From a virus (taxonomy: Duplodnaviria; Heunggongvirae; Uroviricota; Caudoviricetes): 64,000 nt of DNA. Location: positions 17,335-81,334 of the IMG/VR virus record IMGVR_UViG_3300020202_000067, one strand, 5' to 3'. Of this stretch, positions 7,623-62,414 are shown one piece after another. The translations under genes and the position numbers were made by a program. The notes beneath the pieces were generated by a model. The model was given only the letters and a program-made list of their open reading frames with translations. It was not told where the DNA came from and did no database searches. Position 1 is the stretch's first letter. Every line of letters starts with the position of its first letter.

Positions 7623-8222
7623 ATGGCAATGCTCACGATGGGAGCAACTGTTGCTAGCGGCGTTGTCGGCGTTCTAGGCGCTCTGCAGAAAGGCAAAGCT
7701 GATGCCTTCAATGCGCAAGTAGAAGCCGAGAACCGCGCAAGGCAAGCGGATGCGCAGTCTGAAGCCGACATCTTCAATGCAAAGGTTGCCAGGCAGCTCG
7801 CTGAGTCTGAAACGCGACAAGGCGCTGCCAATGCGAAAGATTACCGACGCACCCAAAGCGCCCGTGCTGCCAGTCGCCGCGCAATTGTTTCAGCGTCAGG
7901 TGTTTCCATGGAAGGATCCCCGCTGCTGGTTGATGAAGCGATCTTCCAGGAAATTGAATTTGGAGCACAACGCATTGCTTTTGATTCGATGACCAAGTCG
8001 TCTCGTGCCAGAAACGCAGCCTCACTACTCGAACGTTCAGCATGGCACAATAAGGAAACAGCGCGCATCGCGCGTGAGACTGGACGCGCTAGCGTTGAGA
8101 ACATCCGCAAGGCTTCTTATCTTTCTGCCCTAGGCAGAGGTCTGTCAGGCTTTCTTGACACAAGCAAGGCAATAAATGAAATGGCGACACAAGCAGCTCT
8201 TGGCGGCGGAGGAGGAGGTTAA
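7623..8222 (+). CDS. internal virion (ejection) protein, gp14-position
   Basis: 199 aa. Hydrophobic N-terminus, A/R/Q-rich helical body and a poly-G tail whose codons form the RBS of the next gene. Assigned by position. Confidence 0.55.
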   Translation: MAMLTMGATVASGVVGVLGALQKGKADAFNAQVEAENRARQADAQSEADIFNAKVARQLAESETRQGAANAKDYRRTQSARAASRRAIVSASGVSMEGSPLLVDEAIFQEIEFGAQRIAFDSMTKSSRARNAASLLERSAWHNKETARIARETGRASVENIRKASYLSALGRGLSGFLDTSKAINEMATQAALGGGGGG

Positions 8223-10354
8223 TGGCTAATGAGCTTTTGACGCCTGCTGGAATTCAACGTCCTGGTCATGGCCAGGACCCTGGCGTTTCTATGCGCCCAT
8301 CAACGGTCCTTCTTTCGCCTGTCAGAGACCCGATGGGTGATGCGCTCAATGAGTTTTCTAGAGATCTGTCGGGCATTGCTGCCACATTCAAAGAACTATA
8401 TAAAACTCGTCAGGACGCGGAAGACAGATCATTTGTTGACAAATATCAACTTGAGTACAATAAGCGCGTCACTCCTATTGAAACGGACGCGCTCAATGGT
8501 CCTGATTCCAGCAAGCCAGACTTTGTGAACAAGCTGGATCAGCGCCTCGCTGAGACGCAGAATTCATTAATGGAAGAGTTGCTATCCAGCGGGCAGTTCA
8601 ATCCGAGCAAGAATGGCAAGGAGGCTGCAATTCGTGCAGCTATGCAATTGCGCATTGCAGCGGCTAGGCGTTCTGCTGTAACTGCGCACAACCAACGCGT
8701 TACTAGAGTTGTTGATGAGGCAACAGCGAATGTTGGAGAAGTGGCAAGGGCTTCTGGAGCAAGTGGAGAGTTGGATGCTGGCATAGACCGAGTTGACTCT
8801 ACCATTAAGTCTCTTGAGCGCGTTCTGCCTCCGGACAAATTGCGTGAACTGCAAAAGACAGCGCGTGAGCAAGTGGTGGAGAGCGTTGTTCGCTCTCATA
8901 TTGAGAGAGGCAATTTTGCTGCCGCTCGAATGCTGCTCGATCGCAATCGCGGCTATGCCGCCAACACGACGGAAGGTGCCATTGCCCAAGCTGCGGCCAA
9001 GCACGGAGTTGATCCAGCCTACCTTGTTGCGGCAGCGCGTGCTGAGTCTTCACTCGATCCTGGGGCGAAGCCAAGGGTCGATCCTGCAACTGGCAAGCGC
9101 CCGTCGAATGCGGCTGGCATTTTCCAAATGGTTCCGGAAACAGCCAAGCAATTCGGTCTTCCAGAAGACGCGTCCACAGCGCCGGTAGAGCAACAGATTG
9201 AAGCTGGCGCAAGGTTCGCGGCGCTCAATAAGAAGGTATTGCAGCAAGCGCTCAAGCGTGATCCAACGCCTGGCGAAATGTATCTTGCGCACTTCCTCGG
9301 TGCTGGTGATGCTGTTAAGGTGCTGACTGCGCCAAAGGATCTTAGCGGCAGAGGCGTATCTCTAGACGGCTTGGTCGGCAGCAAATCAATCGCTGCCAAT
9401 AAAGCCATCTTAGATGGCAAGACGACAGACGACGTTATTGAATGGGCGAACAGAAAAATGCTGGCAGCAGGTGCTGGCGGTTCAGCCAACTTCATCAAGG
9501 AAGACACGCGCATTGCATTGCTGTCCCAGCTTGAAACGCGACAGCACCAAATGGATGTTCGCGCTAGAGAGGAAGCAAATCGGCAGACCAAGCTGATTGG
9601 CGAAGCCTTCTTGAAAGAAGCATTCACACAAGCTAACAATGGAAGGCTCAGCCCAGATTATGTCGAGCAAATCAAGCCTTGGATTTCACCGACAGAATAC
9701 AAAGGTCTGCTCTCGACCTTGGGCAAAGAAGACAATATCGATGATCAAGCTGCGATCGTGGATCTGACCACGCGCATAGACACTGAAGATCCAAATGAGT
9801 TCATGACGCGTGCAACGGACTGGATGAACAAAGGCAAACTTAAGACCGGCACCTACACTGCGATGGTTCAGCGCAATCGCACAGCGTTCAGAGACGATCG
9901 TCCTGCCAGTCCGTTCAAGTCCGGTCGTGAACTTGTCAGCACCTCTTTGGATCCTGGCGCGCTGAGCACAGCCGGACCAGAGGCTACGCAACATATGCGC
10001 GTAGCCAGAGCAAATGCATTGATTGAATTTGACCAATGGATCGAAGCCAATCCGCAGGCCAAGCGCGAAGACATCATCAATGAGGCGCAAAACATTGTGC
10101 GTCGTTATGAGCCTGTGGCGCAAGAACGCATGAAGATGGCTATTGGACTTTCTCGCTATTTCGGAGACAAGTCGCGCAATGCCATTACGATGAAAGAAGT
10201 AGAAGATGCAGAATTGGCTCTGCATCGGGACATTGAGTCGGGAAGGCTCACGCCAGCGCAGCAAGGCTTTGAAATTCGCAAACTAAAGAACTGGCGCGAG
10301 ATCATTGCGCGTGAAACCGCGCTTAAGGCGCAGCAGCCTGGACAAAGGAAATAA
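8222..10354 (+). CDS. internal virion protein with lytic transglycosylase (SLT) domain, gp15-position
   Basis: 710 aa. AESSLDPGA...AAGIFQMVPETAK...YLAHFLG matches the SLT E-S / GLMQ / AYNxG pattern. Confidence 0.8.
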   Translation: MANELLTPAGIQRPGHGQDPGVSMRPSTVLLSPVRDPMGDALNEFSRDLSGIAATFKELYKTRQDAEDRSFVDKYQLEYNKRVTPIETDALNGPDSSKPDFVNKLDQRLAETQNSLMEELLSSGQFNPSKNGKEAAIRAAMQLRIAAARRSAVTAHNQRVTRVVDEATANVGEVARASGASGELDAGIDRVDSTIKSLERVLPPDKLRELQKTAREQVVESVVRSHIERGNFAAARMLLDRNRGYAANTTEGAIAQAAAKHGVDPAYLVAAARAESSLDPGAKPRVDPATGKRPSNAAGIFQMVPETAKQFGLPEDASTAPVEQQIEAGARFAALNKKVLQQALKRDPTPGEMYLAHFLGAGDAVKVLTAPKDLSGRGVSLDGLVGSKSIAANKAILDGKTTDDVIEWANRKMLAAGAGGSANFIKEDTRIALLSQLETRQHQMDVRAREEANRQTKLIGEAFLKEAFTQANNGRLSPDYVEQIKPWISPTEYKGLLSTLGKEDNIDDQAAIVDLTTRIDTEDPNEFMTRATDWMNKGKLKTGTYTAMVQRNRTAFRDDRPASPFKSGRELVSTSLDPGALSTAGPEATQHMRVARANALIEFDQWIEANPQAKREDIINEAQNIVRRYEPVAQERMKMAIGLSRYFGDKSRNAITMKEVEDAELALHRDIESGRLTPAQQGFEIRKLKNWREIIARETALKAQQPGQRK
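8975..9325 (+). other. SLT lytic transglycosylase domain
   Basis: aa 252-368 of the 710-aa protein. Putative catalytic Glu lies in the AES motif. Confidence 0.7.
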
Positions 10355-33252: not shown

Positions 33253-33714
33253 TCAATTCCTCACCGGGTGAAAGTTGCCGTCGCCATACTGATACGCCTT
33301 GGGGAAGGAGAGCAGCAGCTCAACGCCCTCAAGGAAGGTTTTATTGACCAACTTTATAGCAGGCATTCTGCTGCCTGCTATAACATGGCCGAGCCAACGG
33401 TGATTGCCGTCAAGGATGTAAGGCTCCTTGCTCAGCAGGCACGGCTTGCTCAGCACGCCGGAGCCGACCAAAGCCTTAGCCTTGCGCGCGTCCACCCGCT
33501 GGTGGGCGCGCACGAGCCACGGATCAATGGTGCACTCACGGACCTCCTCGCCCTTGTCCTTTAGGAAATCAAGGAGCTCAGGCATGTCATCACCGTCAAT
33601 TTGCGGCATGACTTCACGCGGGATGTAGAACGGTTCAAACTCTCCGCCTTTGTAAAAGCGGCCAAGGAGGGAGTTGCACTCCCCGCCTTTCGGTGCATGT
33701 TGCAGGCTCATCAT
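33253..33714 (-). CDS. ParB-like nuclease domain protein
   Basis: Start at MMSLQ (ATGA coupling). YILDGNHRW is the ParB/Srx-type DGxHR motif. Confidence 0.65.
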   Translation of the reverse strand: MMSLQHAPKGGECNSLLGRFYKGGEFEPFYIPREVMPQIDGDDMPELLDFLKDKGEEVRECTIDPWLVRAHQRVDARKAKALVGSGVLSKPCLLSKEPYILDGNHRWLGHVIAGSRMPAIKLVNKTFLEGVELLLSFPKAYQYGDGNFHPVRN

Positions 33715-34052
33715 GGCAGGTCCGGCCTTTCCTTTGCTGTGCATGAGCTATGATCATCGACATCTATGTGTGAAGGCAGCATTGCTTCCGCCTTCGCAAT
33801 GGCTTCACGCGGCGAGGCTGCACGCGCATAGTACTTGCGATAGAACCAGCGCTCGCCGTCACCGCAAGCAAGGTCAACTTCATAGACCATGTTTGCGGCG
33901 ATGACGTCCTGGTCGCATGCGCGACACGCCACGGAGTATGGTCCGTGCTTTTCGCAAACCTCCATCATGCGCTTACCTCTCAGTTGCTGGCGCAAGTCTT
34001 CTTGCGCGCGTTCGTTGAATGGATAGATCGCCTTCATAAGATCGGCCATCAC
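33711..34052 (-). CDS. hypothetical Cys-containing protein
   Basis: 113 aa track ORF. Confidence 0.6.
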   Translation of the reverse strand: MMADLMKAIYPFNERAQEDLRQQLRGKRMMEVCEKHGPYSVACRACDQDVIAANMVYEVDLACGDGERWFYRKYYARAASPREAIAKAEAMLPSHIDVDDHSSCTAKERPDLP

Positions 34053-34585
34053 AACCTTTCCAGCTTGAATGTCTTCGCCTTCTTGTCTTCTGTTAATCGA
34101 TAGGGAAGCTTATCCCTGTCGATCGACATCAGCATGCCCTTGATGACCATGCGCAGCGGACCGAGTTCTGCATGTGGGTTGCCGTAGACGGTCTCCAACA
34201 AGTCGCTGTAGGAGACCGTCTTCCCCAAGTCCCTAACCAACCGAGTGATGCATCTCTCCCTGTTGGTGCCATGCTTGGTCTTGAACTCAGCCAATACCGG
34301 ACCACCAGGGCCAGAGTATTTGGCACTCACCGGGACCACCCACTTAACCTTCTTGGGATCCCAGACCGCGTCCGGGTGCGGCTGGCGGGATTGGCGCTTA
34401 GCCGCCTTGCCCGCCTGCTTGGCTTCTAGGAAGGCAGCTTGAGCAGCGCGAAACCGCTCAAGCTCCTCTTCACGCTTTTCATCGCGGATGAGCAACGGCT
34501 TGGGAGGCGCTGCCTCCCACACCTTCGCCCGCTCCTCACGGCTCATGAAGCAGATGTCAGGCGCTCCATCTTCCATCATCATCTG
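34049..34585 (-). CDS. hypothetical protein, C-terminal domain paralogous to 26103-26345 (start uncertain)
   Basis: The track ORF extends to 34714, but its first 43 aa are low-complexity and overlap a better-looking frame. MMMEDG is taken as the start. Confidence 0.5.
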   Translation of the reverse strand, partial: QMMMEDGAPDICFMSREERAKVWEAAPPKPLLIRDEKREEELERFRAAQAAFLEAKQAGKAAKRQSRQPHPDAVWDPKKVKWVVPVSAKYSGPGGPVLAEFKTKHGTNRERCITRLVRDLGKTVSYSDLLETVYGNPHAELGPLRMVIKGMLMSIDRDKLPYRLTEDKKAKTFKLERL

Positions 34586-34754
34586 CTGCGCCTTCGTCAA
34601 GGCGCGAGGCGTAGGCTTCTCTGACTCTGGCAGGGAAGACGCGGGACTTGGCTTTTTTGACCGCGTGTTCCGGGCTGAGCGCGTAGACTGTGCGTTCTGC
34701 TTTCGTGCCGTCATTGAGCGTGAGCTCCACTCTGTACCTTGATCTCTCTGTCAT
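34557..34754 (-). CDS. hypothetical protein
   Basis: 65 aa. The N-terminal RYRVELTLNDGTKAERTVYALSPEHAVKK looks like a genuine small fold. The C-terminal half overlaps the next gene in another frame. Confidence 0.45.
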   Translation of the reverse strand: MTERSRYRVELTLNDGTKAERTVYALSPEHAVKKAKSRVFPARVREAYASRLDEGAADDDGRWSA

Positions 34755-35274
34755 AACGCTTCACCACGCTGTTATAGATACGGGACCCGACTTCATCGGC
34801 CTCCTGCTCCCATGGAGCATTCTCGTACCTAGCCTCCTGTCCGTTGACGAGGCGTCCGTTGTAGACAACGCCTTGCCGCGTCTGGCGCAAGCGACCCTGC
34901 AACATCTGTGAGACATGGACCATCTCGTGACAGAACACCGCAAGCGGCGTAGGTGCACTGAGACACTTGTCGCACTTGCCGCACCCAGACATGCTCTCAT
35001 TGAGCGTCATCATGATCTCGCCATTCGGTCCGAGAGCGGTGCTCGTGGAGCCCCGTGCATTGCCGTTGTAGCTGTCGTCATTCAGCTCGCCTGGCTCGAT
35101 GCCGAACAGCATGCGCAGAACATTTTCCGCCGGGTTGGGCGCCTTATTGTAGAAGCGAAGGATCACTTTATTTGGGAAGCGCGCGATCCAAAGCTCACGC
35201 ACGATCTCCTTGAACGCAGCTTGGTACTGCGCTTCCTTGTCCGGTGCATTTTCGATGATCAATTCCATTCTCAT
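34711..35274 (-). CDS. HExxH metallopeptidase-like protein
   Basis: Start moved to MRMELIIEN (ATGA coupling). FCHEMVHVSQ motif. 187 aa. Confidence 0.55.
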   Translation of the reverse strand: MRMELIIENAPDKEAQYQAAFKEIVRELWIARFPNKVILRFYNKAPNPAENVLRMLFGIEPGELNDDSYNGNARGSTSTALGPNGEIMMTLNESMSGCGKCDKCLSAPTPLAVFCHEMVHVSQMLQGRLRQTRQGVVYNGRLVNGQEARYENAPWEQEADEVGSRIYNSVVKRYDREIKVQSGAHAQ

Positions 35275-35432
35275 TCCTCCAGCAACCAGGCAACACTGAC
35301 GAAGGTCTGCACAGCCGCGACCGCAGCTTGAGCAGCATCCATACCAAGCGACACTTGCACGAGGAAGGTGCCGCTGAGCATTACGGCTAGCGCCATGTGG
35401 CGCTGCCGCTTGTTGGTGATGATCTTGCTCAC
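35271..35432 (-). CDS. small hydrophobic protein (53 aa, not in track)
   Basis: GTGA-coupled GTG start. MSKIITNKRQRHMALAVMLSGTFLVQVSLG...VSVAWLLEE. Confidence 0.4.
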   Translation of the reverse strand: MSKIITNKRQRHMALAVMLSGTFLVQVSLGMDAAQAAVAAVQTFVSVAWLLEE

Positions 35433-35605
35433 TCCTCGCCTCCCAGAACCGGGCTGAGGATGATGAACGCTGCAAGTGCGCCAGCGGCCCAGGAGTGGAC
35501 GCCGTGCCCTTCCAAGAAGGCGAAGGCAAGATAGGTAAGGTGCGCTGTCTCCTCGCCCATCTTGCGAGTTGCCTTGCCTTTAATCTTTTCAATGAACTTC
35601 TTCAT
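35429..35605 (-). CDS. small membrane protein
   Basis: MKKFIEKIKG...HSWAAGALAAFIILSPVLGG. Start chosen at 35605 by analogy with the spacing in the other conserved-block copies. Confidence 0.5.
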   Translation of the reverse strand: MKKFIEKIKGKATRKMGEETAHLTYLAFAFLEGHGVHSWAAGALAAFIILSPVLGGEE

Positions 35606-35611
35606 CTGCAT

Positions 35612-35632
35612 CTCTCCATGTTGCAGGCTTCA
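35612..35632 (-). promoter_or_regulatory. start-associated conserved block, copy 1
   Basis: Minus strand TGAAGCCTGCAACATGGAGAG, then ATGCAG-ATG. Confidence 0.8.
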
Positions 35633-35980
35633 GCACGGGTCCAGAATGACTTCGATCTCCTCGGTCAGACCTCCGTTGGGGTTGTCGGCCAAACGCGCGA
35701 AGGCGTTGGCCATCGTGTTGCCGAGCTCAGTGAGCGGCTGGCCATTGCGCTGCGCCAGCGTCACGGCCGCGTTGAACAGCGCGATCATGTAGCAGCCGGG
35801 GCAGAGCGTGCCTTCGTAGCTCTTGCCCTGCCAACGCGCACGATAGCGCATGGCTCGGTCGATGGTCGTGGCCAGTTCAGCGCCGAAGTTTCCACGTGTC
35901 TTGTCAGCGATGTGCACGAGGTCCCTGTCGCCGCCATAGACGCGGCCGTCGGTGCCATTGCGAGTGAGTTCGTTCGTCAT
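35630..35980 (-). CDS. hypothetical protein
   Basis: Start moved to MTNELTRNG, immediately after block copy 2. 116 aa. Confidence 0.6.
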   Translation of the reverse strand: MTNELTRNGTDGRVYGGDRDLVHIADKTRGNFGAELATTIDRAMRYRARWQGKSYEGTLCPGCYMIALFNAAVTLAQRNGQPLTELGNTMANAFARLADNPNGGLTEEIEVILDPC

Positions 35981-35984
35981 GTAG

Positions 35985-36005
35985 CTCTCCATGTTGCAGG
36001 CTTCA
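35985..36005 (-). promoter_or_regulatory. start-associated conserved block, copy 2
   Basis: TGAAGCCTGCAACATGGAGAG, then CTAC-ATG. Confidence 0.8.
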
Positions 36006-36200
36006 TAAACCAAACCACATCGGCTTGATTGCATCAACAACAGCCAACCAGAATTCCTTCTGATCAGCAAGGTCTGCGCCGCCATAGGCGTCGTAGTAGT
36101 TGGCATTGGACAACGCTTTCTTGTGCGCCTCTTCAGCGCCAAGAGCATTGATTAGCTGCTGCGCTCGCGCATCAGCCTCCTGGTAATCAGCAAGTTTCAT
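36003..36200 (-). CDS. hypothetical protein
   Basis: Start moved to MKLADYQ (ATGA coupling; GGAGG in AAGCCGGAGGCTGC upstream). 65 aa. Confidence 0.55.
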   Translation of the reverse strand: MKLADYQEADARAQQLINALGAEEAHKKALSNANYYDAYGGADLADQKEFWLAVVDAIKPMWFGL

Positions 36201-36622
36201 GCAGCCTCCGGCTTGAAAGGGTTGTAGCCCATCGCTTTTTCTTCTTCGAACGAAGGTGCCCATGACTCCACCTTGCTGCGTCCATAGTACAGCTTGCGCA
36301 GCAGGTCGTCGCGCGTTTCCACCGGCTCAACTGCGAGCGCGGCGAGCACTTCCTTATAGCGCTCCGCACCCCACAGCTTCTTCGCGATGTCATGGTCGAA
36401 GATGAGGCTGTCAGCAGAGGGGATCTCCTCGACGATGGTGTAATCGAAGCCGTCGCGCTTCTCGGTCACAACGTAGACCAAGTGATGCGCCACGATCACG
36501 TCGGTGACACCGAAGGCTTCGCGGATGATGTCCTTGAAAAGGTCTGCATGTTCAGCGTTGCGATCATTTTCCCAGGGTCCGGCGAGGCGCATGCCCTGCG
36601 GCGTGAAGTCATCCTTCATCAT
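36197..36622 (-). CDS. hypothetical protein
   Basis: 141 aa track ORF. Its start follows block copy 3. Confidence 0.65.
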   Translation of the reverse strand: MMKDDFTPQGMRLAGPWENDRNAEHADLFKDIIREAFGVTDVIVAHHLVYVVTEKRDGFDYTIVEEIPSADSLIFDHDIAKKLWGAERYKEVLAALAVEPVETRDDLLRKLYYGRSKVESWAPSFEEEKAMGYNPFKPEAA

Positions 36623-36627
36623 TTCAT

Positions 36628-36648
36628 CGCTCCATGTTGCAGGCTTTA
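36628..36648 (-). promoter_or_regulatory. start-associated conserved block, copy 3
   Basis: TAAAGCCTGCAACATGGAGCG, then ATGAA-ATG. Confidence 0.75.
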
Positions 36649-37275
36649 AATGTATTCCATCTGCTTGGGGCTCAGCGGGCGCGCGTACTTAGGCGCAGGG
36701 TCCTTGAGCCACTCGATGAGTTGCTTGCGCAGTGACTTCTTGAAGTCGCTACGCAGGTTGGTGGTGAGCAGCTTGCGGTAGCGCGCCCACTCGTAGTATG
36801 AGCGACGGCGCAGACGCAGAAGAGGCACATAGCTCTTGAGGCCGATCTTAGAGGCGATCTCCTTGATGTCCTTACGCGCCATGCGGAGCTCAGCCGCCTT
36901 CTGAGCGCGCTGCTGAGCACGATGCCTGGCTCTCTGTTCCTTCTGCCAAGCTTCGTATTTCGCCAGCGTCTCAGCGTCAGCATCAACCGACGTAGCGAAC
37001 AATGGGTAGGTCCACCCGCGCGTCGTGGCAAACATGACCGTGAACGGCTCGCCCTTTTCATCGTCCCAAATGAGACAAAAGAAGTCGCTGTCCCAAGCGC
37101 CGTTGTGCTCCCACTCCTTGAGCACGCGACCTTCGTATTTCTTCTTGGTCCAGTAGAGCCGCGTGACGGGCCACTCTTCACCCTTGAAGGGTCCGTCATA
37201 TTGCTTCTCGGTTCCTTGCGAGTGGCCCATGGTCGCACCCGGCTCCCATGGCTCTGCGAAGACGATGAGTGCCAT
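36646..37275 (-). CDS. hypothetical protein
   Basis: Start moved to MALIVFAEPW (GGAGCG RBS). 209 aa with a basic helical C-terminal half. Confidence 0.6.
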   Translation of the reverse strand: MALIVFAEPWEPGATMGHSQGTEKQYDGPFKGEEWPVTRLYWTKKKYEGRVLKEWEHNGAWDSDFFCLIWDDEKGEPFTVMFATTRGWTYPLFATSVDADAETLAKYEAWQKEQRARHRAQQRAQKAAELRMARKDIKEIASKIGLKSYVPLLRLRRRSYYEWARYRKLLTTNLRSDFKKSLRKQLIEWLKDPAPKYARPLSPKQMEYI

Positions 37276-37277
37276 GA

Positions 37278-37613
37278 TCAATCGCTCCACTTCTCGATGT
37301 AAGCGTTCGTCTCCTTGAGCACATCCTCAAGGTTGGTGGTATAGTCGGCGAGGCAGTCCTCGACGTTGCCCCAGATGAACTGCACCCAGCCTTGATAGCC
37401 GCGCTTATCAACATTGACCGGTATCTTGGTGACGTAGAACCGATCCTCGTCGGTCGTGAACATTACATTAAGAATGGCTTCTACATCCTTGCTGCAAATC
37501 AGCACATCCTCATCGCCTTCATTCACGGTGATGAAGTAGCCAGCAGCAATCAATTCTTCCGCTGCCTTGCGCGCGATGTTGCGCTCAAGCTCTTGATCCC
37601 ATTTGCGGCTCAT
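37278..37613 (-). CDS. hypothetical protein
   Basis: 111 aa track ORF with a GGAGG RBS. Confidence 0.65.
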   Translation of the reverse strand: MSRKWDQELERNIARKAAEELIAAGYFITVNEGDEDVLICSKDVEAILNVMFTTDEDRFYVTKIPVNVDKRGYQGWVQFIWGNVEDCLADYTTNLEDVLKETNAYIEKWSD

Positions 37614-37614
37614 G

Positions 37615-37695
37615 TCAGAACCTCCAGAAGAACGGCGCTGCGAACAGCGCGACCATTGCGAGCAGTCCTGCGGTTGCGATGAGTTGCTTGATCAC
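37615..37695 (-). CDS. tiny hydrophobic peptide (26 aa, not in track)
   Basis: GTGA-coupled GTG. MIKQLIATAGLLAMVALFAAPFFWRF. Its codons supply the GGAGG RBS of the next gene. Speculative. Confidence 0.3.
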   Translation of the reverse strand: MIKQLIATAGLLAMVALFAAPFFWRF

Positions 37696-37874
37696 TCAGC
37701 CCACCCCTGCAGCTCGCCGGTGTTCTTGGAGCGGACGGCGACGGCCAACCCACCCTGCGGCGCATCTTCGATCTTCCAGGTCTGATAGGGCATGGTGCTC
37801 TCACGAGCAAAGGTGCGCGCCCACTTGAGCGCGGCTTCGAAGTCGTTGAAGGTCTTGACAGGCATCTTGTTCAT
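37692..37874 (-). CDS. hypothetical protein
   Basis: 60 aa track ORF. Its start follows block copy 4. Confidence 0.6.
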   Translation of the reverse strand: MNKMPVKTFNDFEAALKWARTFARESTMPYQTWKIEDAPQGGLAVAVRSKNTGELQGWAE

Positions 37875-37879
37875 TTCAG

Positions 37880-37900
37880 CTCTCCATGTTGCAGGCTTCA
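37880..37900 (-). promoter_or_regulatory. start-associated conserved block, copy 4
   Basis: TGAAGCCTGCAACATGGAGAG, then CTGAA-ATG. Confidence 0.85.
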
Positions 37901-38248
37901 GAAACCGTTGGTGATGCGCTCCAGCGCCTCAGCCCATGCCGCCGTGCGGTCGGCGCTCATCGCATTCGACACCGGCGAAGTCGAGCGCTCCGGCCACCGC
38001 GCGCCGCGCAGCACCAGCCGCTTGATTTCGGACAACGCAGCTTCCGGCTTGTACTCCGGCAGCTCCGTCCATGCCTTGAGGGTCAGCGCAACCTCGAACC
38101 GTGCCGCAGCCTCCATGGCATTCTGCGCCCACTCGAAGGCGTAGGCGGGATTGGACTTGAAGTTTTCCTCGAACTTGCTGAGCGCGCCGCGCACCGCTGA
38201 GTTGGAAAATTCTTCGATGAGGCTGTCGATCTTATCTTGCAGTTCCAT
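37898..38248 (-). CDS. hypothetical protein
   Basis: Start moved to MELQDKIDSL after block copy 5. 116 aa, helical. Confidence 0.6.
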   Translation of the reverse strand: MELQDKIDSLIEEFSNSAVRGALSKFEENFKSNPAYAFEWAQNAMEAAARFEVALTLKAWTELPEYKPEAALSEIKRLVLRGARWPERSTSPVSNAMSADRTAAWAEALERITNGF

Positions 38249-38252
38249 TTCT

Positions 38253-38273
38253 CTCTCCATGTTGCAGGCTTCA
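38253..38273 (-). promoter_or_regulatory. start-associated conserved block, copy 5
   Basis: TGAAGCCTGCAACATGGAGAG, then AGAA-ATG. Here the leading TGA is not the upstream stop, which lies at 38293-38295. Confidence 0.85.
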
Positions 38274-38292
38274 GGCGTCCAGGGCAGTTCAG

Positions 38293-38574
38293 TCATCCAA
38301 GGTTGAATGGCTTGCGTCCTCCCCTTGTGGCATTGTCGATCTTGTCCATGACCGCGTAGAGAGCAGCCTGCTCTTTCTTCAGCGCCTTGCCGCGTGCACT
38401 CTTGAGCACGCTGTTGACCAGCCGTCGGCTATAGCGCTGGGTCTTGCTCTTGTTGATCGCGGCTTCAATGAGCTCGTCGATCTCCTTATCGATCACGTCA
38501 CAACGTGTTTCGGCGAGGCGGTAGATGCCCCACGTGGTGTTGATCGCTGCCTTCTCTTCCTTCGTTAGTTTCAT
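38293..38574 (-). CDS. hypothetical protein
   Basis: 93 aa track ORF. Its start follows block copy 6. Confidence 0.65.
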   Translation of the reverse strand: MKLTKEEKAAINTTWGIYRLAETRCDVIDKEIDELIEAAINKSKTQRYSRRLVNSVLKSARGKALKKEQAALYAVMDKIDNATRGGRKPFNLG

Positions 38575-38579
38575 TTCAG

Positions 38580-38600
38580 CTCTCCATGTTGCAGGCTTGA
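38580..38600 (-). promoter_or_regulatory. start-associated conserved block, copy 6
   Basis: TCAAGCCTGCAACATGGAGAG, then CTGAA-ATG. Confidence 0.85.
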
Positions 38601-38811: not shown

Positions 38812-38832
38812 CTCTCCATGTTCAAGCAGGCC
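38812..38832 (-). promoter_or_regulatory. start-associated conserved block, copy 7 (degenerate 5' half)
   Basis: GGCCTGCTTGAACATGGAGAG, then CTGAA-ATG. Confidence 0.6.
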
Positions 38833-39049
38833 ATTCTTCGATCAAGGCGACGAATTCGTCCCCATCCATCATCGCGAGCTTTTCGAGTTGATTGTTGCTG
38901 AACTTGCCGCTGTCTTCGAGTTGATCGAAGACTTCCTGACCCAGCTCCAACCACGACTTGTTGAGCAACTTGCCGGGCTCGGACGGATCGATCTTCTTGA
39001 CTTCAGTGCTCACACCTTGGTAACGGAAAACATATGTCTTCGTCTTCAT
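38822..39049 (-). CDS. hypothetical protein (first gene after the 400-bp non-coding gap)
   Basis: 75 aa track ORF. Its start follows half-copy 8. Confidence 0.6.
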   Translation of the reverse strand: MKTKTYVFRYQGVSTEVKKIDPSEPGKLLNKSWLELGQEVFDQLEDSGKFSNNQLEKLAMMDGDEFVALIEEWPA

Positions 39050-39054
39050 TTCAG

Positions 39055-39063
39055 CTCTCCATG
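39055..39063 (-). promoter_or_regulatory. start-associated block, half-copy 8 (3' half only)
   Basis: CATGGAGAG then CTGAA-ATG. The 5' half is replaced by a long hairpin. Confidence 0.55.
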
Positions 39064-39120
39064 AGACAACAGGAAAGCGGCGGCAGGGTTGCGCCCCGTC
39101 GCCGCTTGATCTCTTGTCTC
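39063..39120 (-). other. extended stem-loop directly upstream of the first RBS of the small-gene array
   Basis: GAGACAA / TTGTCTC outer stem and AAGCGGCG / CGCCGCTT inner stem (8 bp perfect). On the minus strand it is followed by UUUCCUGUUGUCUC. Confidence 0.6.
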
Positions 39121-39453
39121 CAATTTTACTCTCTTGCCCCCGCTAGCAGCGTCTGTCGGCTAAGCGATCACGGCACCGTCGCGGTGGCGCGTCGCTCGCT
39201 CGGGATGCAGGACCGCCCGGTGAGCATGTTGCTCATCAACGCGAGAGGTCGCTACGCTCTTGCGTTGATGAACTCCCGCTGGAGACCACCTCTCGCTGCC
39301 CAACTGTTGTTGTCTTATTGGCTTGGTGGCGAGGGTACCAGTCAGAAGGACCTTTTATGCTTGGGCGTTCCGACCCGCTTTCTTTCTTTTTCAACCTGTG
39401 GCCGGATTATGCCTGAAATGATAAAGAAAGAAAACATATTTTTTCAACAGTGA

Positions 39454-39894
39454 TTACATGGACTTAGCGTAAATCAGGTCGTGGTAGACCTGGTCCCAAT
39501 CCCACTGCGCAGGTCCGCCAGAGTTTTCGAAAATCCAAAAACGCTTCGGCACGCCAACAAGTCCGGACGTGGCAAGATCGCGTATAGCCGCGCCTCTCAA
39601 CAGAATGAGATCATCACGCGCTTCACGTCGTTTGCCAGCCTTCGCCAGACGACGCACAGCGATGAAGACGCGACCACCATTGCGTATGCGACGCTCTATC
39701 CAACCCACCTGCGATGGCTGCACTTCACACGCGCTCGCCTCACAGCGCTTGTTCTCGATCCAACCTTCTGTGCCATCATGGCAGTAGTTCATGTCGGGCA
39801 CTCCTTGGCCCGTGCTCCATGTCTCCACCGCCTGCCAATGCACCATCGGTAGATGTTGTTGAAATAGTTGTCGCAGTCCCCCGTCGGTCTTCAC
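39454..39894 (-). CDS. VRR-NUC / PD-(D/E)xK endonuclease
   Basis: 146 aa, GTG start with a GAGG RBS. GVPDMNY...GWIENK matches the D...E.K nuclease core. Confidence 0.65.
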   Translation of the reverse strand: MKTDGGLRQLFQQHLPMVHWQAVETWSTGQGVPDMNYCHDGTEGWIENKRCEASACEVQPSQVGWIERRIRNGGRVFIAVRRLAKAGKRREARDDLILLRGAAIRDLATSGLVGVPKRFWIFENSGGPAQWDWDQVYHDLIYAKSM

Positions 39895-40099
39895 GCTGAA
39901 ACCTCGTCCATGGCAAATCGCGCGGCTTCATCACGCGCTCCATTGTGGTGAATGTTCTTCCACAAGACAAACATTTGCGATGCCGTCTAGCACGACGTGT
40001 CTGCATCACCTTGCTTGCGCTGTACCGGCAATAGGGGCAACAGACCTCTGTCTGCGAACTCTTTGCTCCGGATCTTGGCAGTCTGATCCTAGCCATCAA
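39776..40099 (-). CDS. NrdR-like zinc-ribbon protein (no ATP-cone)
   Basis: CPYCRYSASKVMQTRRA..RRHRKCLSCGRTFTTMERV parallels the NrdR N-terminal zinc ribbon. The 3' 119 nt overlap the VRR-NUC gene and look like out-of-frame sequence. Confidence 0.45.
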   Translation of the reverse strand: MMARIRLPRSGAKSSQTEVCCPYCRYSASKVMQTRRARRHRKCLSCGRTFTTMERVMKPRDLPWTRFQREDRRGTATTISTTSTDGALAGGGDMEHGPRSARHELLP

Positions 40100-42929
40100 T
40101 TTCTCCGAGGTACTTCACAGCCTTGATCTTGATCATGCGGAAGTCAGGCGGAACTGAGCCCTTGATTGCATAGAGCGACTTGCCTACTCGACCTTGCTCC
40201 ACGATCTGCCGACCAATGCGCTCGAAGTCGTAGCGGCTCACCTTGCAAAAGATCATGTCGGTGTCGTCCTTAATGAACAAGTTCAACGCAGCCGTCGGCC
40301 CATTGACCGCGTAGCCGCGCTTCATGACGTTGACGGCTTCGTTCTCATCCTTGGGCGCGATCTTGGAAGCGACGCCGATGATGACAACATCCTTGAACGC
40401 ACCGTCCGCTTGCACATCAATGACTGGCGTTGGCGCAGTGACAATGTTGATTGCTCCAAGATCTGGATGCAGCTCCTTCACCTTGTCAGCTATTGGGAAC
40501 AACGTGTCAATGTCGGTCTTGGCGTTGTCAAGTCGCTTCTTCAAGGTGGCACGCAGCGGTGTTCCTGAGGACCTCGCTTCCATGATCTCGCGGACGGTTG
40601 CTGAACCGATGCCCTTGATCGAGGTGAGAGGACCCACAAGGATCGTCCTCTCACCTTTCTTGATTGGCATCCACTTGTCTGTGGAGTGGTCCGGGTCAAA
40701 GGCGAGATAGTCAATGCCTTCTTCCTTCAACTCGCGCAGCAGCGCAATCTGTTTTGCTGGATCGCTCTCAGCATCTAATGTGGCAGCGGCAAACTCAACA
40801 GGATAATGCGCCTTGAGCCAACAGCAATAATACGACACGAGACCGTAGGCGACAGCGTGCGAACGGTTAAAAGCCCAAGAGCCGAAGGTGTTGATCTGAT
40901 CCCAAACAAGGCGCGCTGTGTCTTCATCGATCCCATTTTTCAATGCTCCATCCTTGAACTTCAACCAGTAGCGTTCGAAGAACTCATTGCCGAGACGGCC
41001 AGACATCGCCTTACGAATAGCAGACGTGTCCTCCCAGGACATGCCTCCCATCTCACGCACGATCTTCATCACCTGTTCCTGATAGATGGTGATGCCGAGC
41101 GTCTCCTTGGTGAGCTCGGTAAGCATAGGATGATAAGAAGATATCGGCTCCTTGCCGAGCTTACGTCGCACCCAGGACCCAGCGCCGCCCGTGGCCATTG
41201 GTCCAGGGCGCGCAAGCGCTGTAATCGAGATGATGTCTTCTAGGTGCGTCACCTCAATCTGCTTCACTAGCGATTGCAACGCCTGACCAGCAAATTGGAA
41301 CACACCAGCGAAGCGGTGCTGACTGAGAACATTGAATGCCGCCGCATCGTCCAATGGCAATCGATCAAAGAAGCGGAAATTTCCCTCTTCGCCGATCAGC
41401 TCCAATGCGCGCTCGAAGATTGAAAGCTGCGTCAGACCCAGAGCGTCGATCTTGAGTAGGTTCAGATCCTCAGCATCCTTCTTGTCGCACATGGCTGCGT
41501 TGGTGCGGCTGTCTACAGCGACATATTCAAGAATAGGCTCATCGGTGACAAGAACGCCAGCCGCGTGTTGCGAGGACGTTGTCGGGTGGCCTTCCATGCG
41601 GGAAGCCATCATGGCTTCTGGAAATTCATTCAGAAGAGACTGACCATTGATTGTCTCCTTGAGCGTGTCCTCAAGTTGCTGCATGGCGCGTGAGTCACCG
41701 GAGGAGCGTTCGATGATGCCGTCAAGCGCCTTGTCAACCTTCCACTTTGGTATGCGCAAGGAGATGCCAGCTTGCTGCAACGCGCTCTTGGGGCCGTACA
41801 TCATCACGGTTCCCAGCCGAGCCATGCGCTCCTCGCCATATTTCTCGGCAATGTACTTGAACACCTCCTCACGCTGCTTGTCAGAGAAGTCAACGTCGAT
41901 ATCTGGCAAATCCGCGCGATTGATATCGATGAAACGCTCAAAGATCAGTCCGTAAGGGATGGGATCTACTGTAGTGATATCGAGTAGGTAGCACACGAGA
42001 CTTCCACAAGAGGAGCCACGTGCCGGTCCGACAGCCATGCGGTCTCGAGCCCAACCAACAATATCTGAGAGGATGTAGAAATAGTCTTCAAACTTCTTGT
42101 CGGCGATAAGCTTAAGCTCCCGATCAAGACGCTCAGCATAGACCTTGTCTTTCAAATTGATGGAGCGTTTCTTCGCTCCTTCAATACACAATTGACGCAG
42201 CGTCTTCTTGCGCTCAGGCTTCAGGAGCGTCGCCTTCCTCAGTTCAGCTCGACATTGCTTGATTGCGTTATCTCTGGCCTTGATGGCAGCAGCCTTGTCC
42301 CGTTCACTAGCAAACCAGACAGCCTCCATCCATTCGTCATCATCAATGATCCATTGCGGATATGTTTGAGTGCCAGCTCTCTTCCCGAGAGCGACACGGT
42401 AAAGCTCAAGATCGGCTTGGCGAGGAAAGACATTGTCGCCGCTAGCGATGAAGCGGAACCCAGCAGCCTTCGCTTGTTTGTAGAGACCAATTGGCGTTGA
42501 TGGTGATAGAGCAACATAGAGATCCTTGTCCTTTTTCTTCACACGCTCAAGCTGCAGACGCTCGCCAGCGATCTTGATCACGCCCTGTGCGGCAAGCGCC
42601 TGCTTGTAAAGCAAGCTCGGCTCACGGCCAGGATTGGCTGTTGCAAGCGCAATGAGCTCATGGATAGAACGCAATGAGTCCTTGGCGAAGAATGTCCAGT
42701 AGTCTGGGCTTGGCCGCTTCTCCCCCAGAGAAGAGACCACTGCTAGTTCTACACCATAGATCGGTCTAAGCTCGTGCTTTGCGCACAGCTTAGACCAACG
42801 ATTAAATCCGAAGGCGCTCGTCCTGTCTGAAATCGGCGCGGCCTTCCACTTGATCTCCTTCAGACGCTCTATAATGTCTGGCAGGTGCCCCACCGCAGTG
42901 CGGAAGGAATATCCCGTGCGTATTCTCAT
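40089..42929 (-). CDS. dnaE: DNA polymerase III alpha subunit (DnaE-type)
   Basis: 946 aa. FERFIDINRADLPDIDVDF and downstream palm/fingers motifs are typical of DnaE. The N-terminal PHP-like region lacks obvious His clusters. Confidence 0.9.
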   Translation of the reverse strand: MRIRTGYSFRTAVGHLPDIIERLKEIKWKAAPISDRTSAFGFNRWSKLCAKHELRPIYGVELAVVSSLGEKRPSPDYWTFFAKDSLRSIHELIALATANPGREPSLLYKQALAAQGVIKIAGERLQLERVKKKDKDLYVALSPSTPIGLYKQAKAAGFRFIASGDNVFPRQADLELYRVALGKRAGTQTYPQWIIDDDEWMEAVWFASERDKAAAIKARDNAIKQCRAELRKATLLKPERKKTLRQLCIEGAKKRSINLKDKVYAERLDRELKLIADKKFEDYFYILSDIVGWARDRMAVGPARGSSCGSLVCYLLDITTVDPIPYGLIFERFIDINRADLPDIDVDFSDKQREEVFKYIAEKYGEERMARLGTVMMYGPKSALQQAGISLRIPKWKVDKALDGIIERSSGDSRAMQQLEDTLKETINGQSLLNEFPEAMMASRMEGHPTTSSQHAAGVLVTDEPILEYVAVDSRTNAAMCDKKDAEDLNLLKIDALGLTQLSIFERALELIGEEGNFRFFDRLPLDDAAAFNVLSQHRFAGVFQFAGQALQSLVKQIEVTHLEDIISITALARPGPMATGGAGSWVRRKLGKEPISSYHPMLTELTKETLGITIYQEQVMKIVREMGGMSWEDTSAIRKAMSGRLGNEFFERYWLKFKDGALKNGIDEDTARLVWDQINTFGSWAFNRSHAVAYGLVSYYCCWLKAHYPVEFAAATLDAESDPAKQIALLRELKEEGIDYLAFDPDHSTDKWMPIKKGERTILVGPLTSIKGIGSATVREIMEARSSGTPLRATLKKRLDNAKTDIDTLFPIADKVKELHPDLGAINIVTAPTPVIDVQADGAFKDVVIIGVASKIAPKDENEAVNVMKRGYAVNGPTAALNLFIKDDTDMIFCKVSRYDFERIGRQIVEQGRVGKSLYAIKGSVPPDFRMIKIKAVKYLGEIDG

Positions 42930-43375
42930 GCAGCCCTCTTCCCCTTGCGCTTATACCTTGGAATGCCAACTTCGCCTTCAACGACGCTGACCAATGCAAC
43001 AGAGCAATCACAACGCTTAGCAATTTCCTGCTGGCTCAATCCCTGCTTCGCCAAGGCGATGATCTTGGCGCGGCGCTCTGGATCATCTGTCTTCGGGCGC
43101 TTCTCAAGGCCAGCGATCCTTGCATAACGTAACACTGTATTGCGGGAGCATCCGTATTTCTTCTGAATATCATTCACCGGAACGCCAGCCTTGTAGTCTG
43201 CCACCACATGCTCAAAGCGCACCAAACGATTGGCGCGCTCATGAGTGAATGAAAAGATGCGCTTCACTTGCGCAATGAATTCAAGGAACGGCTTCACCGC
43301 CTTCCTGGTTCTCAGATACTCCGCCGCATCCTTCAGTGTGAACAGCATCATCTGGATCCTTCTTATTACGCTCAT
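42926..43375 (-). CDS. tandem-HTH DNA-binding protein
   Basis: 149 aa. Two resolvase/psq-type HTH units (IQKKYGCSRNTVLRYA and QQEIAKRCDCSVALVS). The start may be at MMLFTL. Confidence 0.55.
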   Translation of the reverse strand: MSVIRRIQMMLFTLKDAAEYLRTRKAVKPFLEFIAQVKRIFSFTHERANRLVRFEHVVADYKAGVPVNDIQKKYGCSRNTVLRYARIAGLEKRPKTDDPERRAKIIALAKQGLSQQEIAKRCDCSVALVSVVEGEVGIPRYKRKGKRAA

Positions 43376-57804: not shown

Positions 57805-57946
57805 TCGGGAGCTCCTCTAACTGGGGTGATCCTGCCTCGGCAAAAGCCACACGAAAAGTGAATTTTTTTCTTTCTCTACGATTTTTATTTTCCTGTGGCA
57901 ATTTTCCAGCCTTAGATAGCGCGTCCTGAAACAAAGGAGAAGTCCC
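57805..57946. promoter_or_regulatory. divergent control region between leftward and rightward blocks
   Basis: 142-nt AT-rich gap between divergent starts. Direct repeats ATTTTCCTG (57887-57895) and ATTTTCCAG (57901-57909). No confident -35/-10 assignment. Confidence 0.5.
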
Positions 57947-58090
57947 ATGTTGCCAGAGGAAGACCGTAAAAAGAAGGAAGAAGAGGAGCGCAAGCGTCGA
58001 GCCCAAGAAGGCAGCGCGCCAGTGACAAGTGATTATTCGACAACAACAAGCGACAATGGAGGATGCGACACTGCTGGAGGATGCGACTGA
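57947..58090 (+). CDS. small acidic/basic protein (47 aa, not in track)
   Basis: AAGGAGAAG RBS. MLPEEDRKKKEEEERKRRAQEG... The terminal GGAGGATGCGAC x2 repeat supplies the next RBS. Confidence 0.45.
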   Translation: MLPEEDRKKKEEEERKRRAQEGSAPVTSDYSTTTSDNGGCDTAGGCD

Positions 58091-61489: not shown

Positions 61490-61789
61490 ATGAAATTGAA
61501 ATATTTAACAAAGCGTGAACGCCAAGTTTTTGATGCGTGCGTTGGCGGCTTGCTCGACAAGGAAATTGCCCACACTCTCGATATCAAGTCAGAGACAGTC
61601 AAGGTGCACAAACACCACATTTACAAAAAGCTAGGATTGAGGAACAAAGCTGAACTCGCCTTCATACGTGGAAAACAGGAAGCCGTTTCAATCCTCGAAC
61701 TCATTGCCTTGACCGAATTTGCCGGCGATGAATCAGTCAGCAGGCTTGTGGCCAAATTCAAGGAGAAAGTCGAAAATGGCCTGGGTTGA
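61490..61789 (+). CDS. LuxR/GerE-type HTH regulator
   Basis: LTKRERQVFDACVGGLLDKEIAHTLDIKSETVKVHKHHIYKKLG. Confidence 0.8.
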   Translation: MKLKYLTKRERQVFDACVGGLLDKEIAHTLDIKSETVKVHKHHIYKKLGLRNKAELAFIRGKQEAVSILELIALTEFAGDESVSRLVAKFKEKVENGLG

Positions 61790-62414
61790 AAGTGAGGTTG
61801 CAGAGCTCAAGCGACTTGTTGAAGACACGGATCTTTCACGCAAAGAGATCGCTGCGCTCTTGGGCAAGACCAAGGGCATGGTTTCCTCCAAGCTCTGGGC
61901 CATGGGTCTGACGCTGAAGGATGAGACGTGGAATGCTGAAAGAGAACAGGCTCTGAGAGAACTCGCTCTCGCTGGAAGAACTGCCAAGGACATCGCCAAG
62001 GAGCTTGGCAATGGGATCACGCGCAATGCTGTGGTTTCAAAAGCTGCAAGAATGAAGATCTCGCTCAACGGCGATCTCAAGCAACGCAATGTGCACGGCA
62101 AGCACCCCACCATGAAAGAGATCGCCGAGCGCTCTTCTGCGCGCTACAAGCCGCGAGAGCGTGAGGTTCCAGGGATCATATTCAGACATTGTCAGTGGCC
62201 AATCGGAGACCCTCTTGAGGAGGGCTTCCATTTCTGCTGCCAGCCTGTCATGGAACCGAAGAGGATGCCGAACGCTCGGCGCGAGACCCGCTATCCTTAC
62301 TGCGAGGCGCATTGCTGTCGAGCGTATGGCGGATGGACCTACGAGGAATATGTTGAAGCCTTTGGTGAAGAGAAGGCCAAGAAGTACTGGGCGCAGAAGA
62401 GGCAGCGCCAATGA
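61776..62414 (+). CDS. gcrA: GcrA-like cell-cycle regulator homologue with duplicated N-terminal HTH
   Basis: Start at MAWVESE (AAGGAG RBS). Two W..E....L..L......s...IA..LG...RNAV.SK..R units and a C-terminal CQWPIGDP...FHFC...PYCEAHC. Confidence 0.7.
   Translation: MAWVESEVAELKRLVEDTDLSRKEIAALLGKTKGMVSSKLWAMGLTLKDETWNAEREQALRELALAGRTAKDIAKELGNGITRNAVVSKAARMKISLNGDLKQRNVHGKHPTMKEIAERSSARYKPREREVPGIIFRHCQWPIGDPLEEGFHFCCQPVMEPKRMPNARRETRYPYCEAHCCRAYGGWTYEEYVEAFGEEKAKKYWAQKRQRQ

Follow-up and report, generated by a model that had tools for sequence, protein, structure and literature searches.

A predicted promoter and a conserved structured RNA ahead of the small-gene array of an uncultured phage with a DnaE-type polymerase

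IMGVR_UViG_3300020202_000067 is the IMG/VR record of an uncultured tailed phage (Caudoviricetes), and the 64,000 nucleotides (nt) analyzed here, positions 17,335 to 81,334 of that record, are referred to as the window. Our subject is a 404-nt gap at 39050-39453 of the window. Its two neighbours are minus-strand genes: on one side a gene for a 146-amino-acid (aa) protein (39454-39894), on the other the first member of an array of small genes (38822-39049). We propose that the gap comprises a promoter and a non-coding RNA of about 335 nt, that this RNA is mostly released at a hairpin, and that read-through of the hairpin expresses the small-gene array; in our estimate, the probability that this reading is correct is about one half. 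Comparison with relatives shows the promoter motif, the non-coding status of the gap, its membership in an RNA family, the structure formed by two helices of that RNA (P2 and P3), and the strand on which the RNA lies. The start site, the efficiency of termination, the release of a discrete RNA, and its binding partner are predicted.

These results correct an annotation, in which an apparently spurious antisense gene call gives way to what appears to be a promoter and a conserved structured RNA. Rfam 15 lacks this RNA family, for which compensatory changes provide support and which has members in four other uncultured phages with a DnaE-type polymerase. The clade consists of uncultured podophages that encode this polymerase and probably infect Alphaproteobacteria. 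The comparison points to a pattern in which one conserved promoter is followed by long, unrelated, and exchangeable structured leaders before hypervariable small genes, each leader being ended by a terminator or a hammerhead ribozyme. If these leaders are released RNAs or antitermination devices, they would provide a new handle on the timing and protection of early and accessory phage gene expression.

The predicted promoter and the RNA behind it

The comparative sample consists of 127 loci from IMG/VR and JGI metagenomes collected by DnaE-based searches, and 11 further loci with DnaE homologues from Logan assemblies collected by exact-protein look-ups; individual loci are numbered with the prefix L. 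A blastn search with 3 kilobases (kb) against 50,697 phage records gave no match, and the neighbouring small proteins used as IMG/VR queries found no relatives. Degenerate DNA patterns derived from conserved blocks returned 1, 7, and 71 matches in IMG/VR and GTDB genomes, all of which were chance occurrences within coding sequence or in DNA without a relationship to the phage. The homologue of the 146-aa gene is followed, in most relatives, by 400-950 nt that are free of genes. When the gap itself was searched by blastn and nhmmer against 60 and then about 130 DnaE-related loci, the matches were L099, L129, L134, and L136 only; L217 and L218 carry other leader types outside the window's RNA family. 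The genomes of this family are mutually saturated, with DnaE proteins 64-69% identical and four-fold degenerate third positions 33-35% identical, and the nuclease gene next to the gap (the 146-aa gene) is 38-56% identical across the four family genomes. Because synonymous sites are saturated, nucleotide conservation in the gap reflects selection on the RNA or the DNA itself.

The predicted promoter lies on the minus strand. A T-rich box, TTTTCTTTCTTT (39423-39434), is nearly unique in the 64 kb and ends 11 nt upstream of a -10 hexamer, CATAAT (39406-39411), which lies within the conserved TCAGGCATAATCC (39404-39416); this motif is a unique match in the window. In at least 13 very diverged relatives, gene-free stretches open with a T-rich box, either TTTTCTTTCTTT or TTTTCTTTTTC. 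The element cATAaT comes 6-14 nt after the box and is often embedded in TCAGGCATA(A/G/C)T. The -10 element is kept as nATAnT in at least 13 relatives, as in a sigma-70-type -10, and TTTCTTT is present in 12 of 14 syntenic regions. The sequence TCAGGCATA(A/G/C)T stands at the same position in L129, L131, L135, L136, L217, L130, and L133. In L133 and L130, the motif lies directly before the first small gene with a leader of just 25-60 nt, so that the role it keeps throughout is to drive transcription of the array behind it. An earlier note on this DNA, made from the sequence alone, had listed a middle promoter among the candidate roles of the gap, and the relatives support an internal promoter. 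In L136, L099, and L138, a terminator-like hairpin for the upstream genes precedes the T-rich box, which is consistent with a boundary between transcription units.

Position -35 in the window reads TTTTCT, and no TTGACA-like hexamer is present at 16-18 nt. In the absence of a canonical -35, the promoter therefore probably relies on the T-rich box, which might be recognized by a DNA-binding factor that the phage itself encodes. One candidate for this factor is the 149-aa product of 42926-43375 (minus strand), which has two helix-turn-helix motifs and weak similarity to sigma-70 region 4. Transcription is predicted to start at about 39399. Two other ideas were dropped: the pair TTGAAA-18-TATCAT proposed by a promoter scan is not conserved (0 sites in relatives), and a general phage-specific promoter consensus was set aside, the motif being almost unique within the window.

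The RNA family lies behind this promoter, after the nuclease gene that follows DnaE and before the small-gene array. The window, L129, L134, and L136 carry full-length members, and L099 carries a partial one as its contig ends early. The shared order of elements is a purine tract, hairpin H1, the sequence CAAGCAwAwAGG, helix P2 enclosing hairpin P3, hairpin P4, the sequence CUnnAGCGsGA (the 3' strand of P2), a variable GC-rich part, and a GC hairpin with a U-run directly before the ribosome-binding site. In the window, all of the following elements lie on the minus strand. The 5' purine tract GAAAAAGAAAGAAAG (39378-39392) is the inverted-repeat partner of the T-rich box, an arrangement also found in L129, L134, L136, and L099. 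Hairpin H1 (GGGU-CGGAAC-GCCC, 39363-39376) is followed by the conserved CAAGCAUAAAAGG (39351-39363). Its loop is kept as YGRAAC and its stems differ, being GCG/CGC in L129, GGG/CCC in L099, and GCC/GGC in L136. P2 is a long-range helix with a bulge and an internal loop, predicted by RNAalifold at 39274-39347 (5' strand 39347-39334, 3' strand 39290-39274). P3 lies within it (39326-39300) and has a 21-nt A-rich loop (39323-39303) that reads AAGAAGAUAACAACGAAAG in three genomes and AAUAAGACAACAACAG in the window. A 20-nt block of this loop is identical in 3 of the 4 genomes, and the mean column identity of the RNA is 63%. The small hairpin P4 is present in L129, L134, and L136 and absent from the window.

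As a separate observation, H1 and the purine tract read on the opposite strand score as an intrinsic terminator in the window (39363-39390, plus strand), L129 (4473-4489, minus strand), and L136 (7784-7803, minus strand). Such a terminator would stop antisense transcription from entering the promoter and the replication genes.

Covariation with relatives, a check that the earlier note had proposed, supports P2 and P3. In the four sequences, 64 of 64 pairing cells are paired, and both partners have changed in 7 of the 16 pairs (12 cells). A covariation score of 0.71 compares with 0.31 in shuffled controls, and controls slid by 1-3 columns are 38-45% paired with 0-2 compensated cells. Ten cells are G-U pairs; on the opposite strand these would read A-C, which identifies the strand of the RNA as the minus strand, in the sense of the genes. 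Because P4 is missing from the window, MAFFT alignments of short sub-regions placed the window sequence wrongly; alignment A4 and a window-free model were used instead. This covariance model, R1, was built solely from L129, L134, and L136, and it matches the window once in 64 kb, at 39255-39396 (minus strand), over model positions 1-161 of 161 with 40.1 bits and an E-value of 5e-9. Among about 125 other related loci, L099 alone matches R1 (26 bits, its contig ending early). The Rfam/Infernal scan, also proposed earlier, gave no window match in Rfam 15 at the gathering score and none useful at E <= 10; the best sub-threshold match, PtaRNA1, is on the wrong strand with 19 bits against a threshold of 47. 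A small conserved peptide encoded in the RNA was considered and rejected: the L129 and L134 frames contain stops or lack start codons, and the 20-nt block is free of synonymous variation.

The conserved core comprises the 5' domain (39396-39274) and the promoter. The earlier note had described this part as an AT-rich edge of the gap, which is indeed present (GC content 0.39-0.40 across 39350-39499 against about 0.55 around it), but it had seen there merely an edge. All of the hairpins and repeats that it listed were found again at the coordinates given there. Those that it stressed most, a 14-base-pair (bp) stem and CACCG...CGGTG, fall in the variable GC-rich middle of the RNA (39157-39271, minus strand), where relatives differ in sequence and share few blocks. 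The former corresponds to a 15-bp hairpin at 39233-39271 with 15-nt arms (39233-39247/39257-39271) that are 93% complementary around a 9-nt loop (-25.6 kcal/mol). The latter is CACCGtcgCGGTG (39175-39187), the tip CACCG-CGA-CGGUG of a long hairpin. Both hairpins are window-specific. The tRNA-like cloverleaf that the earlier note had failed to find is absent for ARAGORN as well, which reports 0 tRNA or tmRNA genes in the window.

That the most eye-catching hairpins (39233-39271 and 39175-39187) are not conserved would suit a spacer without function, in which GC-rich sequence happens to form hairpins. Folding of the 404-nt gap compared with dinucleotide shuffles gives z = -5.0 for the minus strand and -3.5 for the plus strand, with 0 of 100 shuffles folding equally well, and the predicted RNA of about 335 nt gives z = -4.1. 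The minus-strand folding, the R1 match, the compensatory changes, and the conservation of nucleotides despite saturated synonymous sites all contradict a spacer already at the comparative level, and of all the explanations considered we find this one the hardest to credit.

The earlier note had also called the gap free of open reading frames (ORFs), which is not strictly so. A plus-strand ORF of 139 codons (39034-39453), antisense to the RNA, fits the gap precisely, stopping a single base short of the neighbouring gene's stop codon. The Logan assembly lists it as a 130-aa gene, so that automated annotation would have a protein-coding gene of 130-139 aa at 39034/39061-39453. Its codon-usage log-odds per codon is -0.03, whereas 22 long genes score 0.12-0.41 and neighbouring small genes 0.25-0.50. 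It has no tblastn match in relatives despite conserved DNA, and it matches nothing in Pfam or PHROG. The leaders of L131, L137, and L138 contain antisense miscalls of a similar kind, and conservation in the gap tracks RNA pairing on the strand opposite to the ORF. We judge the ORF spurious and a coding role very improbable. Together, these comparisons support the structured non-coding RNA that the earlier note had named as another candidate.

A replication origin, also among those candidates, would place the function of the gap in the inverted TTTCTTTCTTT/AAAGAAAGAAA of its AT-rich edge (39379-39393/39419-39433), with the transcript activating or priming replication as in ColE1 RNA II and the T4 and T7 origins. 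The gap does come directly after the DnaE polymerase and nuclease genes, and it has an AT-rich segment with a local GC content of 0.39. Copies of the repeat are found in either orientation, 3-5 of them in L129 and L138, and the purine-rich 5' end of the RNA would favour an R-loop. In L218, direct repeats of 34-42 bp with a DnaA-box-like core lie upstream of the same promoter. However, the window has only two inverted copies of the repeat, fewer than a minimum of three iterons, and the only copy that is universal keeps a constant spacing to the -10, which is what a promoter element would do. The gap contains no DnaA box or DnaA-box cluster. Cumulative GC skew has no inflection at 39 kb and reaches its minimum at about 58 kb, at a divergent region; its extremes, at about 20 kb and about 58 kb, are confounded by transcription direction. 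An origin would also leave the P2/P3 covariation with its G-U pairs unexplained, and we consider it improbable. A further repeat of the gap, TTTTTCAAC (minus strand: TTGAAAAA), occurs in two copies at 39387 and 39440.

Two side observations touch on origins. The L218 repeats are iteron-like and comprise three 42-nt direct repeats (core TTATCCCACAGCCGCAGG) and two 34-nt repeats with the palindrome AAACCCACATTTTTGTGGG at 8261-8473. In the window, the divergent intergenic region at 57805-57947 is the start of both the leftward and the rightward gene blocks, coincides with the cumulative GC-skew minimum, and contains a look-alike of the T-rich box, TTTTTTTCTTTCTCT, facing rightwards (57862-57877, plus strand). 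If an origin or an early control region is sought, this stretch is more promising than the gap.

The predicted 3' end of the RNA, and hammerhead ribozymes

The predicted 3' end of the RNA is a terminator-like extended hairpin at 39063-39120 (minus strand; -34.5 kcal/mol) with outer arms GAGACAACAG/CTCTTGTCTC, inner 14-nt arms (39075-39088/39094-39107), and a U-rich tail, UUUCCUGUUGUCUC. The stem of its GC core (39075-39107) has 11 pairs and continues in the outer extension, which gives the GC-rich stem-loop of an intrinsic terminator. Equivalent hairpins with (U)CAC and a U-run close the leaders of L129, L134, L136, and L217, and a hairpin with a U-run is found in every family member that reaches that far. 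The hairpin adjoins the ribosome-binding site of the first small gene, where the cassette AUGGAGAGCUGAAAUG and the start codon of this 75-aa gene lie at 39047-39062 (minus strand); at least 7 array genes are preceded by this same cassette. The hairpin replaces the first half of the cassette AAGCCUGCAACAUGGAGAGCUGAAAUG that is found before other array genes. A terminator-type hairpin in this slot had been anticipated in the earlier note, and the relatives support it. A simple terminator scan calls the L129 hairpin and calls that of L136 on the opposite strand only.

Elsewhere in the array, the cassette (UGA)AGCCUGCAACAUGGAGAGCUGAAAUG precedes at least 7 small genes at 33699-38597 (minus strand), for example at 38575-38597, 37875-37897, and 36623-36645. 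It resembles the 3' part of the junctions between hammerhead ribozyme and ribosome-binding site in relatives (CUGAUGAGCCaG...AUGGAGAG) with two bases fewer. The cassette may derive from a ribozyme junction that decayed or was replaced, or it may serve these genes as a common module for translation initiation.

Hammerheads flanking phage genes are a published pattern (PMC3088659), and the relatives agree with it. Where their leaders are unrelated, type II hammerheads (Rfam RF02276, 38-44 bits) close the leader at its 3' end and also lie between genes of the array. Four are above threshold, at 8098-8162 and 8444-8511 in L135 and at 8422-8487 and 8730-8785 in L137. Others were recognized by eye at about 9745-9825 in L001, 7768-7848 in L135, and 8915-9000 in L218. 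Since type II hammerheads occur at leader ends, the leaders of these relatives would be physically separated from the mRNA. No hammerhead was found in the window, even at E <= 5, and none in L129, L134, or L136. Among the loci seen, arrays with hammerheads and arrays with the window-type RNA family do not overlap.

Function of the RNA and comparison with known systems

In the proposed mechanism, the gap heads a leftward transcription unit whose transcription would start at about 39399 from the promoter formed by the T-rich box and CATAAT. The first 335 nt or so would fold tightly into a non-coding RNA in which P3 displays the conserved A-rich loop. The hairpin would then stop most transcripts, or mark their processing, and leave a discrete and stable RNA of about 335 nt, and polymerases that read through it would express the small-gene array. 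Single-stranded A-rich segments on the P2/P3 scaffold are the likely working surface, and their protein partner would be RNA polymerase or an RNA-binding protein of the host. Release is favoured by conservation that extends along the whole RNA to the hairpin, by leaders that behave as exchangeable cargo behind a constant promoter (some phages have no leader), and by relatives that cut their leaders off.

Several points weigh against this reading. The family is small, with four full sequences and one partial one, and the P2/P3 structure was derived from the same four-sequence alignment that was used for the pair counts. The minimum-energy fold of the window RNA alone lacks P2, and the folding z-scores of relatives are modest (-3.0, -2.1, and -1.6). 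At the 3' end, the U-tract of the window is weak (UUUCCUGU, 5 U in 8), the (U)CAC spacer parts the stem from the U-run in relatives, and the simple terminator scan misses the hairpins of the window and L134. With a U-tract that is weak or spaced from the stem, partial read-through is plausible. The RNA start, 3' end, and abundance are all predictions. No target or binding partner of the RNA was found; in a search of the 64 kb for antisense targets, the P3 loop matched only itself, and a 10/11 complementarity to the hairpin tail is not conserved. Finally, no other promoter is visible for the downstream genes, so that substantial read-through is required, and this fits a cis-regulatory leader equally well.

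A purely cis-acting leader is accordingly the strongest competitor, possible but on balance unlikely. It would be either an antiterminator RNA that rides on the polymerase, like HK022 put or conAn2, or an attenuator or riboswitch that senses a protein or ligand. The succession of promoter, conserved RNA, hairpin, and long operon is the architecture of antitermination or attenuation, the layout resembles lambda pR'-6S-tR', HK022 put, and conAn2, and an array without another promoter fits such a leader. An alternative pairing of GCGAGAGGU (39296-39288) with ACCUCUCGC (39249-39241) is possible in the window and overlaps P2 and the 15-bp hairpin, but it involves window-specific, non-conserved sequence. 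The 17.5 kb downstream contain 21 terminator-like sites against 17.8 +/- 4.3 in shuffles, with no strong site in the sense direction. As such sites are not enriched, the multiple terminators of processive systems are not evident, and this also favours a released RNA. The 150-200 nt of variable sequence between the conserved domain and the hairpin would be unusual for a riboswitch, Rfam gives no riboswitch match, and hammerheads at the leader ends of related phages would sever a tethered antiterminator.

A bolder reading is that the 5' domain (P2, P3 with its invariant 20-nt A-rich loop, and H1) represents a new functional RNA class, one of several unrelated and interchangeable leader cargoes that the clade carries behind its one conserved promoter; in relatives, this slot is taken by long leaders of other kinds and by hammerhead ribozymes. 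We offer this tentatively and consider it rather unlikely. Such an RNA could bind RNA polymerase or a host RNA-binding protein and be released abundantly early in infection, or it could instead be a new self-processing RNA. Four A-R-N triplets follow one another in the purine tract, and a hairpin and U-tail close the RNA. This signature of Hfq-binding RNAs is only a lead because the purine tract is simply the inverted repeat of the T-rich box.

Several known systems resemble the gap in part. In lambda, the pR' leader of about 194 nt (6S) ends at the strong terminator tR', and most transcripts stop there unless the polymerase is modified by Q. The 6S leader is not known to need a conserved fold. 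The gap is similar in having a promoter with a putative protein-binding element, a short non-coding leader, and a terminator-like hairpin before a long operon; it differs in that its RNA is about 335 nt long with a conserved, covarying 5' domain, has no sequence similarity to lambda, and comes with no identified Q-like protein or promoter-proximal pause element. The put element of HK022 is about 70 nt long with two stem-loops. The putRNA acts just downstream of early promoters (PMC9378689). Like it, the gap RNA is a structured RNA just past a phage promoter with terminators further on and with no need for a conserved downstream gene. Unlike it, the gap RNA is five times longer and has a long-range helix that encloses a hairpin with a 20-nt A-rich loop, its downstream terminators are not enriched, and its binding to polymerase would be an analogy only.

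conAn2 is a 383-bp RNA-coding region that heads a long operon in a mobile element (PMC8191782). The likeness lies in a large intergenic RNA of about 380 bp, flanked by an inverted repeat and poorly conserved in sequence between elements, at the head of a long operon of pLS20-type conjugative plasmids. conAn2 works together with the upstream-encoded protein ConAn1, in an operon with several proven terminators on Gram-positive plasmids (PMC8191782), whereas neither a ConAn1-like partner nor several operon terminators were seen at the gap. Other small RNAs belong to phage operon leaders with a single promoter and are cut from the leader or terminate within it. These are the P4 CI RNA and the P1/P7 c4 RNA, which are about 70-80 nt long and pair with repeated complementary sites in their own transcript. 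In contrast, the sole complementarity of the gap, AUAAGACAACA/UGUUGUCUCAU, is not conserved, and no other target is present in the 64 kb. GOLLD and ROOL are large structured RNAs without ORFs that are associated with phages. They share with the gap RNA a complex fold of several hundred nt in phage DNA, but the gap RNA is smaller, has been seen in only five sequences to date, and in each case lies on the promoter side of a gene array. The gap has no Rfam match at the gathering score or at E <= 10, GOLLD and ROOL both being assumed to be present in the Rfam library. Type II hammerheads (PMC3088659; RF02276) occupy the same slot in L135 and L137 and would likewise separate the leader from the mRNA; the window lacks one and has the terminator-like hairpin in that slot.

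Gene neighbourhood and other leaders

The window is phage DNA, with plus-strand structural genes for a tail protein, a 2994-aa internal virion protein, and a transglycosylase. The 36-kb leftward block, from 57804 to about 21950, encodes ThyX, an RNase T-like exonuclease, DnaE (the alpha subunit of Pol III), and helicases. No phage RNA polymerase was seen among the large window ORFs scanned. The DnaE polymerase gene (40089-42929) encodes 946 aa without an intein. An intein in DnaE is common among relatives (L134, L136, L137, L217, L218, L031, L054, L057, and L104), where the intein-bearing proteins have about 1200-1240 aa and the intein-splicing Pfam signal is faint. The same DNA is present in a public 81-kb contig (Logan assembly). 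The best other DnaE match among 5.8 billion proteins is at most 68% identical, and DnaE of the closest cultured phages is 35-39% identical. A gene for a GcrA-like regulator (61719-62411, plus strand) suggests an alphaproteobacterial host.

The gene after DnaE (39454-39894, minus strand) starts at a GTG at 39894, giving 146 aa; the automated call is 112 aa from an ATG. The GTG is the true start because the N-terminus aligns with homologues in more than 20 relatives. The gene is conserved, with homologues of 135-155 aa that carry a GWIE.K motif, and the motifs PD...GWIE.K suggest a PD-(D/E)xK-type nuclease. The product has no Pfam match and matches PHROG 2165, which is labelled 'DNA helicase'. 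The small genes downstream of the gap, beginning with the 75-aa gene at 38822-39049 (minus strand), show no conservation in relatives.

A second leader type stands behind the same promoter in L006, L135, L131, L217, L218, L003, and L007/L102. It begins with GUCGAAACGGC and contains 1-3 copies of CGCAGUAGCGAG or GGCAGUAGCC. The L001 leader contains CGUAGUAGC three times, and L134 and L136, which belong to the window's RNA family, share a similar GCGCAGCAGCCGAA block. In the gap of L131, an uncalled gene at 6849-7420 (plus strand of the locus) encodes a protein with a signal peptide and a high content of Gly, Asn, and Pro; the gene call of the pipeline is on the opposite strand. Upstream of this gene lie the promoter, a mini-ORF of 3 codons with a strong ribosome-binding site, and a clean terminator.

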